Of a DNA stretch of 44,690 nt, positions 1 to 3,000 are shown piece after piece. Positions within the stretch are counted from its first letter, which is position 1. Each line of letters starts with the position of its first letter. Position numbers: made by a program. This DNA is from a virus, in the UHGV virus genome UHGV-0128395. One strand, 5' to 3'.

Positions 1-3000
1 TCACTAGATTCTGACGATTTCCAGAAGGGAGATTCAGCAGGCCAGCATCTGTAATCATTCAGATTTGCTGGCTTGCTGCTAAATATGGTTGCTAAGAAAA
101 ATAGCAGGCCAGTAATTTATTCAGATTGCTGAATATAATAATTTTTCAGGAACGGTTATGCTGAAGGTAGTATGTTTAATCGACACAATTATTTGCTGTG
201 TCTAATATGAGGTGACATTTTTATGATCACTGACCAGCAAGACTGACCCGTATTGATTAGCCTGATTATTGGCAACTTATTGGGGTAGTCATTTTGACAT
301 CCAATGGGGGAGGTTTCCAGTTAAGTTCACGAATGCATGATGATTTGCGTTCACATATCGAAGTACTGGTTGACTATACTAAGGATTTTAAGATAACTCA
401 CTGATTGTAAGTGGGTTATTGCGAGGGGGATGATAAATGGTGTCCCCTGCAGACATCTACTTGAAGCGGCAGGGGATTGATTGGAATGGTGTTTTTTAGA
501 TGTGAAAAATATTTTACCCGCTATTTTACCCATTGGCGCGGCTTAAGAGCTTATTTTTGAATTCACAATGGTCACGATATAACCATCTTGCTCGCCCGTG
601 GATAACTTTGGCTTTAGGCAGGTCCCCGGACTTAATCCGGTCATAGATGAAGGTTTTACCAAAGCCAGTATCAGCCATGATGAATTTCAAATCAACCAGT
701 GAATCAGGCTGTAGTTCGTGTTGCATGAGTGCTATCTCCAAATAGGGAATCGAACCTGCAAATCAGGCAATAAAAAACCGCCATCAGGCGGCTTGGTGTT
801 CTTTCAGTTCTTCAATTCGAATATTGGTTACGTCTGCATGTGCTATCTGCGCCCATATCATCCAGTGGTCATAGCAGTCATTGATGTTCTCTGCTTCGAT
901 AACTCTGTTGAATGGTTCTCCATTCCATTCACCTGTGACTCGGAAGTGCATTTATCATCTCCATAAAACAAAACCCGCCGTAGCGAGTTCAGATAAAAGA
1001 AATCCCCGCGAATGCGAGGATTGTTATTCATTGCTGATATTCACCTTTATCGCGAACACCTTTACCGGTTTATCGCCGAAGTGCGGATGTGTGATTGTCT
1101 TGATTTCATATCCGTCATACGGAACATCAATTCTACGGCTGGAATCGTCGCGCTTCGGATATCCCTTTGTGATAATCAGGCGGTCATGCTTACGGTTAAC
1201 GAGGCGCTTTTTCCAGTAGTCATTAACAAGGCGATACTCTTCCGTTTTCTCTCCGCGAATCATGGCATCGAAGTATTCACCTTTAACGGCAAGTTGCAAG
1301 TTAGCCACGGTTAACCTCCTGCTTCGGTGCTGCTGGCATTTCACGCCAGTGCGTAACTGAGTGCGGATCCGGATATTCGGTGCCATCATCCCAGCGATTA
1401 CCATTCCACATTGCAGACCACATCTCACCGTCTTCATACATGACCATTACCGGAATTAACTTATCCGGCATTCGCTCACTACAGCTTATCCAACCATCCG
1501 GAGTTACCGGATAGTTGCCCGATAGCGCATTACGCAATCGCTCCAGCTTCACGTATTCCTGAACCCTGTTTCCGTCGCATGCCTGAAGCCATTGCGCAGC
1601 CTTTTGCGCATCAGTGTGAAAGGCACAAGTGCGACCGTCATCAAATTGCATTTCGTAGAGGTCAGCAACTTGTTCAAACTGCGTGTGTTGTGACTTGTAA
1701 GTTTGGCTTACAGGTTCGGCACCATGAAGCATGGCGTCGCTCCGCTCTATGCCATCCAGCGCGATTCGCAGTGCCTGAATTGTGGTAGAGCTATCGTTTG
1801 GGGCTATTCCATATCGCTCGAATACAGCGATATGGCCGCGTATAATCTCAGGCGTAAGCTCTTTGTAAGCATAAGCAAGAGGCTCTGATGCATTATCCGG
1901 CACAACCGACACAGGCGCGGCAGCATAAACAGGAAAAACGTCCGATTGATCTTTATTGCTTTCATCCGTCAAAGCCCAGAATAATTTTCCGGCCGGATGT
2001 TTGAAAATATAAGCAACTGGTTCTGCTTCCAGCGATGCCAGTGCAATTCGTGCCAGTTCTTCCGCTTCTTCTGCTGGCAGTACAACGTTGCTACCAGGTC
2101 CGTATGTTTCGCGCCACTGCTTGATTGTCAGCAGTCGCTCTTTGGTAATAGTGGTCATTTGTTAATCCTCAAAACTTTATGCCCGGGCGCAAAAGCACGC
2201 GTTTTGTCTTTGCTTATTCGCCACCCGTCTTTACGCGCCTCTTTTGCACAGCCAGCCCATGACGTACCGATATATTCACCGAAGTCTGGCGTTTGATATT
2301 TACCATTTGTACACTGGCGACAATCACAGTAGAGATGCATGGTGTAACTTGCGGCAATAGCCATATCACTCTCCTTTGATGCGAATGCCAGCGTCAGACA
2401 TCATATGCAGATACTCAACTGCATCCTGAACCCATTGACCGCCAATCCCGTAATAGCGATGCGTAATGATGTCGATAGTTACTAACGGGTCTTGTTCGAT
2501 TAACTTCCGCAGAAACTCTTCCAGGTCACCAGTGCAGTGCTTGATGACAGGAGTTTTCCCAGGATGGCGAACAACAAGAAACTGATTTCCGACTTCACGG
2601 ACTTCGTTGCTTTCCAGTTCTGCAATGCGCTTCTCTGCGGCTTCCAGCTCAACTCTCAGCTTCCCTACCGTTAGCGCAATATCCTCGTTCTCCTGGTCGC
2701 GGCGTTTGATGTATTGCTGGTTTCTTTCCCGTTCATCCAGTAGTGCCAGCACGGTTTCTGGTCCGGCCAGAAATTTGAAGGCGTTGAGCGCATCAATATC
2801 CACACCGTAATCTTTAAGTTCCTGTTCGCTTATCAGATCATCATCAACTGGCAACATTAACAGGCGTTCCATTGCCGGAATTGCACGTTCTGCCGCCTCA
2901 CGCAGTGCCTGATAGTTAATTTTGGTCATATCACATCACCCTGAAGCCGTTGCATTTACGTAAAAAATCGCAGATATAGCCCTTCATTTTTTCGTGCCAA

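Follow-up and report, generated by a model that had tools for sequence, protein, structure and literature searches.

A conserved tRNA-like element in the leader of the excisionase gene torI of argW-targeting phages

A copy of the argW T-arm lies in the torI leader

UHGV virus genome UHGV-0128395 (44,690 nucleotides [nt], referred to over its whole length as the window) carries a prophage at argW, the gene for a tRNA-Arg(CCT). Its integration module comprises torI, which encodes the excisionase or recombination directionality factor (RDF), the integrase gene intS, and the two copies of the attachment (att) core (Table 1). Here we describe a 16-nt copy of part of argW in the leader of torI. An earlier note on this DNA had pointed out that positions 746-761 match argW positions 40515-40530 in the same orientation, beyond torI and about 300 bp from the core, and the match is exact: the + strand reads GGAATCGAACCTGCAA at both places, and the torI (minus) strand reads TTGCAGGTTCGATTCC at 746-761. 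The argW copy takes in the T-loop, flanked by the T-stem's 5′ half and by 2 nt of its 3′ half. The att identity runs over 431-452 and 40494-40515. In argW, the first base of the 16-mer is thus the last base of the att core; on the phage side, 293 bp containing torI separate the core from the 16-mer.

On the torI strand, an intrinsic terminator is followed by the motif, 5 nt, the Shine-Dalgarno (SD) sequence GGAG, 9 nt, and the ATG, and the sequence after the terminator reads ATTGCCTGAT-TTGCAGGTTCGATTCC-CTATTT-GGAG-ATAGCACTC-ATG. The 16-mer region is not recognized as a tRNA or pseudo-tRNA: ARAGORN gives argW alone in the window, Rfam finds no tRNA match in 400-1100, and the 3′ T-stem half of the phage copy is CCCTA, not CCTGC. 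Other argW remnants in the prophage, for instance beyond intS, were looked for and not found. When the crossover identity block TGCAGGGGACACCAT was searched for with at most three mismatches, only the two known cores matched, and the motif is therefore no secondary att site.

No third copy of GGAATCGAACCTGCAA occurs in the window with up to two mismatches allowed (0.06 expected from shuffles). However, chance pairs of exact 16-mers are also present in the window (families D5 and D7), and GGTTCGATTCC, an 11- to 12-mer, is a common T-arm sequence among tRNAs generally. The significance of the element therefore comes from its conservation in relatives and not from the single match.

Table 1. Features of the integration module and its surroundings in the window
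Feature	Position	Strand	Remarks
att core copy, torI side	431..452	.	attL of the earlier note; in the Ansaldi papers, attL is the int side
Degenerate T-loop-like attP segment adjoining the core	453..463	-	CAAGTAGATGT here, TTCGATGTA in most relatives
Two direct GGGTAAAA repeats at the torI 3′ end	512..531	-	IntS arm-type sites by analogy
torI (RDF/excisionase), 66 amino acids	526..726	-	TorI of HK620 and Sf6 100% identical
torI SD, GGAG	736..739	-	5 nt 3′ of the motif, 9 nt 5′ of ATG
Near-invariant 11-mer GTTCGATTCCC	745..755	-	Inside the conserved core
Conserved core of the motif, AGGTTCGATTCCC	745..757	-	argW nt 51-62 plus one further base
16-mer	746..761	-	Identical to argW 40515-40530
Intrinsic terminator (stem 775-794 plus T-run)	769..794	-	Closes the upstream lambda orf55-like gene
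55-amino-acid open reading frame	784..951	-	Homologue of the lambda gene at 29118-29285
intS integrase	39185..40339	-	CUS-3 integrase 99.5% identical
Int-side arm, five GTTCG/GTCCG/GATCG repeats	40406..40493	-	I1-I5 layout, 20-bp then 10-bp spacing
argW, tRNA-Arg(CCT)	40501..40575	-	ARAGORN; sole tRNA found in the window

The motif is kept across genera at a fixed position before the RDF gene

The 16-mer is the Escherichia coli-lineage form of a conserved element, (CAG)GTTCGATTYCC, which lies within the RDF leader and forms the 5′ edge of the argW integration module (leader-RDF-attP-int). We found (CAG)GTTCGATTYCC about 5 nt before the RDF SD in Escherichia, Citrobacter-like, Serratia, Pantoea, Edwardsiella, Hafnia, and Erwinia modules. 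The DNA upstream is unrelated among these genera, and (A)GGTTCGATTCC(C/T) precedes the RDF SD throughout. Citrobacter-like lineages carry a GATTTCC variant, the RDF leader of phiEt88 also has the motif, and Erwinia phage Midgardsormr38 has two tandem copies before its RDF gene; such tandem copies have periods of 13 or 16 bp. The earlier note had reasoned that its match would mean little if it were generic T-arm similarity without conservation at this position in relatives, and the conservation across genera answers that concern.

The spacing is similarly constrained. The distance from motif to SD is 5 nt in 45 of 57 motif-bearing leaders, and the stretch from 4 nt before GTTCG through to the ATG measures exactly 36 nt in 37 of 50 unique leaders. 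Eleven nucleotides are invariant while the adjacent spacer and the upstream flank diverge, and they remain so alongside RDFs down to 39% identity. Comparison of 136 unique leaders with GTTCGATTCCC gave 85 with at most one mismatch, 6 with two or three, and 45 with four to seven, the range in which shuffled leaders peak. After reduction to 36 leader types (nonredundant at 80% identity), the strict motif is present in 14.

Within E. coli, the sequence between T-run and ATG is conserved in 80 IMG/VR loci with identical TorI, which have at least three unrelated genes upstream; variants of the motif itself occur as singletons only, while a flanking ATTGCC/ATTACC polymorphism is found in 18 of the 80. 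The torI leader segment is present in 1,395 of 5,426 complete E. coli genomes, where torI is the only annotated feature. When viral contigs were scanned for the motif followed by an SD and an ATG, the matches outside tRNA genes were nearly all TorI-type RDF genes, apart from a few tRNA-adjacent ones that were left uninspected.

The motif was absent from Klebsiella-type modules, in which the upstream gene overlaps, and from Cronobacter, Proteus, Tatumella, and Dryocola loci; some motif-less loci show a clean 25-nt gap. Among closely comparable loci (L093, L229, and L384 versus L090 and L092), presence or absence of the motif amounts to a 25-nt segment flanked by GG, ttattgcctGG[cttccaGGTTCGATTCCCaaactGG]AGata versus ttattgcctGGAGata, which fits either a deletion or an insertion.

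The 16-mer most likely derives from the argW T-arm. This origin is plausible because the match is to the very tRNA that the module targets and because different lineages extend the identity on opposite sides: E. coli alone has the TTGC of the 16-mer, which extends it 5′-ward, whereas Serratia and Pantoea both extend it 3′-ward by TG (CCTG), as if a longer argW copy had been eroded from both ends. The earlier note's proposal of a scar of an earlier or alternative integration thus fares well as to origin but not as to status, since across lineages the motif is either intact or absent. Its other proposal, an extended ancestral attP, does not fit, because attP has its own degenerate T-loop beside the core (TTCGATGTATGCAGGGG in most relatives). 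Insertion of torI into a once-continuous tRNA homology was likewise considered and ruled out by this core-adjacent, T-loop-like copy, which is present in nearly all relatives and reads ATTCGATGTATGCAGGGG in most of them and AGTAGATGTCTGCAGGGG in the window. At a probability of roughly 80%, we regard the motif as a conserved, selected, tRNA-like leader element rather than a scar, a promoter, or an RDF operator.

The motif is independent of RDF specificity

Among loci with an intact attP, the int-side arm repeats fall into three classes, each accompanied by its own RDF helix segment: GTTCG or GTTCT with GKTFIY (L426, L428, and g341c), RTTACC or GTAACC with (A/S)KYFYS (L394, L400, L385, and phiEt88), and GACCAG with DRYFYK (L438 and L443). 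The leader motif is unchanged across all three. A second RDF family (MRELRDD...) has partner integrases with GGGCATA arm repeats instead of GGGTAAAA; it uses the same argW core, and most of its members carry GTTCGATTYCC at the same place. The motif is tied to argW-targeting modules and not to a particular RDF.

The target itself offers little variation. Locus L475 (1300-1385) has an Edwardsiella-type tRNA-Arg(CCU) whose acceptor reads GGGAACGCCA rather than GGGGACACCA, and the phage core follows this change; its T-arm is nevertheless identical to that of E. coli argW. Covariation of motif and target could not be seen among the modules found, as all those with the motif share the core and, so far as is visible, the same host T-arm. 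IntS-like integrases of Pseudomonas, Rhodobacter, Acinetobacter, and Vibrio phages came with a different gene order or no leader, and around the AlpA-like RDFs of F116 and phi297 the gene order was different or the leader missing.

As a separate observation, the RDF helix and the arm repeat change in step, while the layout of 20-bp and then 10-bp spacing is kept throughout (int-side arms of L394, L398, L400, L385, L426, L428, L438, L443, L449, and L451, and 40406-40493 in the window). This three-way correspondence is possibly a recognition code for the TorI-type RDF family.

A possible anti-Shine-Dalgarno role in the leader RNA

Most likely, the motif is a tRNA-derived cis element that is kept by selection and would limit TorI expression. 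How it would do so is less certain. The mechanism that we favor, tentatively and at less than even odds, is that the motif acts as an anti-SD sequence in the torI mRNA. In this model, torI would be reached by transcripts reading through the upstream terminator, and in the read-through mRNA the motif would pair with the SD region, either UUCG with CGGA or AUUCC with GGAGAU, the latter fold being joined by GGUU:AACC pairing just before the start codon. Leaky read-through transcripts would then be poorly translated, and TorI synthesis, as the step deciding excision in the TorI/IntS phage family, would be held low.

The leaders are compatible with such pairing. A hairpin enclosing the SD (GGUU:AACC plus AUUCC(C):GGAGAU) fits 85% of alignment cells, compared with 33 to 63% for shifted registers, and the UUCG:CGGA register fits 78%. 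Positions C20 and A29-C31 are conserved beyond the need for an SD and fit both pairings. Folding predictions bury the SD strongly in the GATTTCC lineages (-10 to -12.5 kcal/mol, z about -3), and L094 and phiEt88 also show clear predicted occlusion.

Several results weigh against this mechanism. In the window's own E. coli lineage, leaders with a shuffled 5′ part are predicted to hide the SD at least as well (z of 0 to +1). Covariation is absent: there is hardly any variation in the paired columns, the values observed are matched by the shuffled controls, and where the 3′ partners do vary, they are not compensated on the motif side. RNAalifold run on the leaders gave no consensus structure. Pairing alone leaves unexplained both the near-invariance of 11 nt and the identity with the T-loop of the target tRNA. 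Finally, 22 of the 36 nonredundant leader types do without the motif, which is thus dispensable. The comparison with known SD-sequestering leader hairpins is mixed in the same way: GGAG can pair with a pyrimidine-rich stretch that lies a short, constant distance before it, but covariation is lacking here, stability is weak in the E. coli lineage, and identity with a tRNA would not be needed.

Alternative explanations of the motif

The nearest competitor is that the leader carries a copy of the presumptive attB "B" core-type half-site, to which IntS would attach through its core-binding and catalytic domains. The integrase, being always present, would then block read-through or otherwise hold torI down, perhaps with a bridge to the GGGTAAAA arm sites that lie some 215 bp off at the 3′ end of torI. 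We consider this unlikely, although several observations suit it, and rank the anti-SD mechanism slightly ahead. In argW, CAGGTTCGATTCC is precisely the stretch adjoining the crossover identity block, and 13 to 16 nt equal argW up to the core boundary, as expected of an integrase core-type half-site. The motif persists across modules with GTTCG, RTTACC/GTAACC, and GACCAG RDF repeats and with GGGTAAAA or GGGCATA Int repeats, which share the core TGCAGGGGAC, and a change in the acceptor stem (L475) leaves the T-arm of the host tRNA the same. In both Int families, attP keeps ATnnGATGTnTGCAGGGG beside the core, which suggests that the integrase contacts this segment, and strict invariance without compensated changes fits recognition by a protein. 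Yet the leader copy is a lone half-site, and in KplE1 mutation of the core site left IntS binding to the att region unchanged, so that core contacts appear weak on their own (PMC2951348). The genuine attP half-site is also more variable than its counterpart in the leader, the 13- and 16-bp tandem copies do not resemble core sites in their arrangement, and the half-site reading explains neither the constant 5-nt spacing to the SD nor why C31, A30, and A29 are conserved. Less likely still is the stronger form, in which the motif is a deliberate attB half-site mimic through which a constitutive integrase reads its target sequence and directly gates excisionase synthesis. If true, recognition of the target and the switch to excision would be coupled by regulation, a coupling kept across modules that differ in RDF and arm specificity and whose only tie would be to the argW target.

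Three further readings seem to us far less probable. The motif contains GTTCG in the orientation of the TorI sites, whose published cores are GTTCG, GATCG, and GTCCG, and TorI represses intS (PMC2951348); TorI might thus repress its own gene, as it does at PintS, from a cognate operator in the leader, which in some lineages is present as tandem direct repeats. We hold this very improbable, because the motif ignores RDF specificity: it is unchanged where the I1-I5 repeats are RTTACC/GTAACC (L394, L400, L385, and phiEt88) or GACCAG (L438 and L443) and the RDF helix has changed. Its conserved extension ATTYCC is missing from I1-I5, and the window has a single copy, in contrast to the arrays phased at 10 and 20 bp that TorI binds cooperatively. 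Just as improbable is a cII-activated, pI-type promoter whose cII box would take its second tetrad from the TTGC of the 16-mer and have the motif as spacer. The earlier note had placed the match over the presumed torI promoter, and this agrees with the HK620 record, whose predicted "phage integration" promoter maps to 733-771 of the window with a cII box at 758-770; the Sf6 record annotates pI at the same place, and lambda has pI and a cII box at the homologous position, with homology that reaches the first tetrad. Neither the conservation pattern nor the promoter scan bears it out. The box reads TTGC-N5-TTGC rather than N6, 18 of the 80 E. coli loci have TTAC for the first tetrad, and outside E. 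coli the second is TTCC, CGCC, or TGAC. The conserved part would be the spacer rather than a -35 or -10 element, the alignment has no conserved -10, and a sigma-70 scan of 300-1400 found no promoter-like site.

The motif could finally be a neutral relic, a piece of tRNA that remained after an aberrant excision, from an older att site, or through shuffling of modules, and shared only through common descent and frequent recombination of modules. That it sits exactly at a mosaic boundary and is missing from 22 of the 36 leader types, in some by a clean gap (ttattgcctGG[25 nt]AGata), would agree with this. A decaying scar is, however, at odds with the bimodal distribution, intact or absent, with almost no decayed intermediates; with the invariance of 11 nt beside diverging flanks and next to RDFs of as little as 39% identity; and with the E. 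coli loci, where variants of the motif are singletons and flanking polymorphisms are common. We judge a neutral relic improbable as well.

Other interpretations were discarded. The motif could be translated as GSIP in the torI frame, but its third codon positions are invariant, in E. coli a TGA lies three codons upstream, and TAG variants occur. An Rfam match to STnc130 scored 27.3 bits against a gathering cutoff of 55 and rests mainly on the terminator hairpin; this sub-threshold match lies at 676-803 on the + strand, antisense to the torI start, and the terminator hairpin is bidirectional. Other Rfam families were all sub-threshold too, and comparison by eye with the IHF, Fis, LexA, sigma-54, sigma-E, and tor-box consensus sequences gave no convincing match.

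Relation to known systems

The module is well studied in KplE1 (CPS-53), HK620, Sf6, and CUS-3. The window shares with the KplE1 module the 16-nt core CTGCAGGGGACACCAT, five GTTCG-type repeats, and an intS promoter on the int side, and TorI is 100% and IntS 99% identical. The sites described there are the IntS arm and core sites, the TorI sites I1-I5, and IHF sites, and none lies upstream of torI (PMC2951348, PMC3509656). The leader element, probably a control element for excision, is thus undescribed in these two papers, and a literature search with the motif string returned eukaryotic tRNA-Gly vectors only. In this phage family, integrase is always present at a low level, excision is decided by RDF production, and the KplE1 authors call the control of the RDF still to be understood (PMC2951348).

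The closest parallel in lambda is pI, a promoter with a cII box where xis begins. It occupies the same position relative to the RDF gene, with homology in the upstream terminator and the first TTGC, and its annotation has been carried over into the HK620 and Sf6 records. Here, however, the box has the wrong spacing and is not conserved, and the part that is conserved is tRNA-like.

The element also resembles the usual tRNA homology of attP in that phage DNA copies part of the 3′ half of the target tRNA. Such homology is ordinarily contiguous with the crossover site and rebuilds the tRNA, and Williams reportedly distinguished, in 2002, sublocation classes for the tRNA-derived attP homology of tRNA-integrating elements. 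The leader copy, in contrast, lies 293 bp away, beyond the RDF gene, lacks the core, cannot rebuild the tRNA, and is additional to the core-adjacent copy. We take it to be a probable cis-regulatory element of a site-specific recombination module; what sets it apart is that it copies the target tRNA's T-loop.

The argW phage family is widespread and includes HK620, Sf6, and the K1-capsule-modifying CUS-3. The silencing of torI and its switch-on are only partly understood, and the short, strictly conserved tRNA-like element (GTTCGATTCC) in the ribosome-binding region of torI is a concrete target, open to mutation, for testing this control. Should the integrase bind it, a new coupling of two recombination proteins would result.

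Other features of the module and the window

The torI module shared with HK620, Sf6, and relatives runs from the core to about position 831. The 55-amino-acid open reading frame upstream, with its terminator, is 97% identical to lambda and HK022, and this shared backbone stops at about 764; the reading frame is variable upstream context and lies outside the integration module. By analogy with KplE1, the five int-side repeats are candidate TorI sites (PMC2951348). Published IntS arm-type sites contain TAAA (PMC2951348).

In the RDF-side arm of attP (453-480 in the window; also L086-L102 and L385-L443), CCCCTGCA forms an inverted repeat of TGCAGGGG in the core, with a spacing of 17 to 22 nt in both integrase families. 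A 60-amino-acid open reading frame at 351-533 on the minus strand crosses the torI-side att core; its counterparts are HK620 hkaB and Sf6 gene 17, and in the prophage state host DNA replaces its 3′ part.

Farther along the window, at 38201-38942, a run of the heptamer TCAAGAC (13.3 copies, 38204-38296) follows an ATG at 38201 and precedes an open reading frame for a hexapeptide-repeat acetyltransferase (38607-38942). This locus presumably resembles the phase-variable O-acetyltransferase gene neuO of CUS-3. The 13 repeats run the frame of the ATG into stop codons, so that the acetyltransferase gene is in the OFF phase here.

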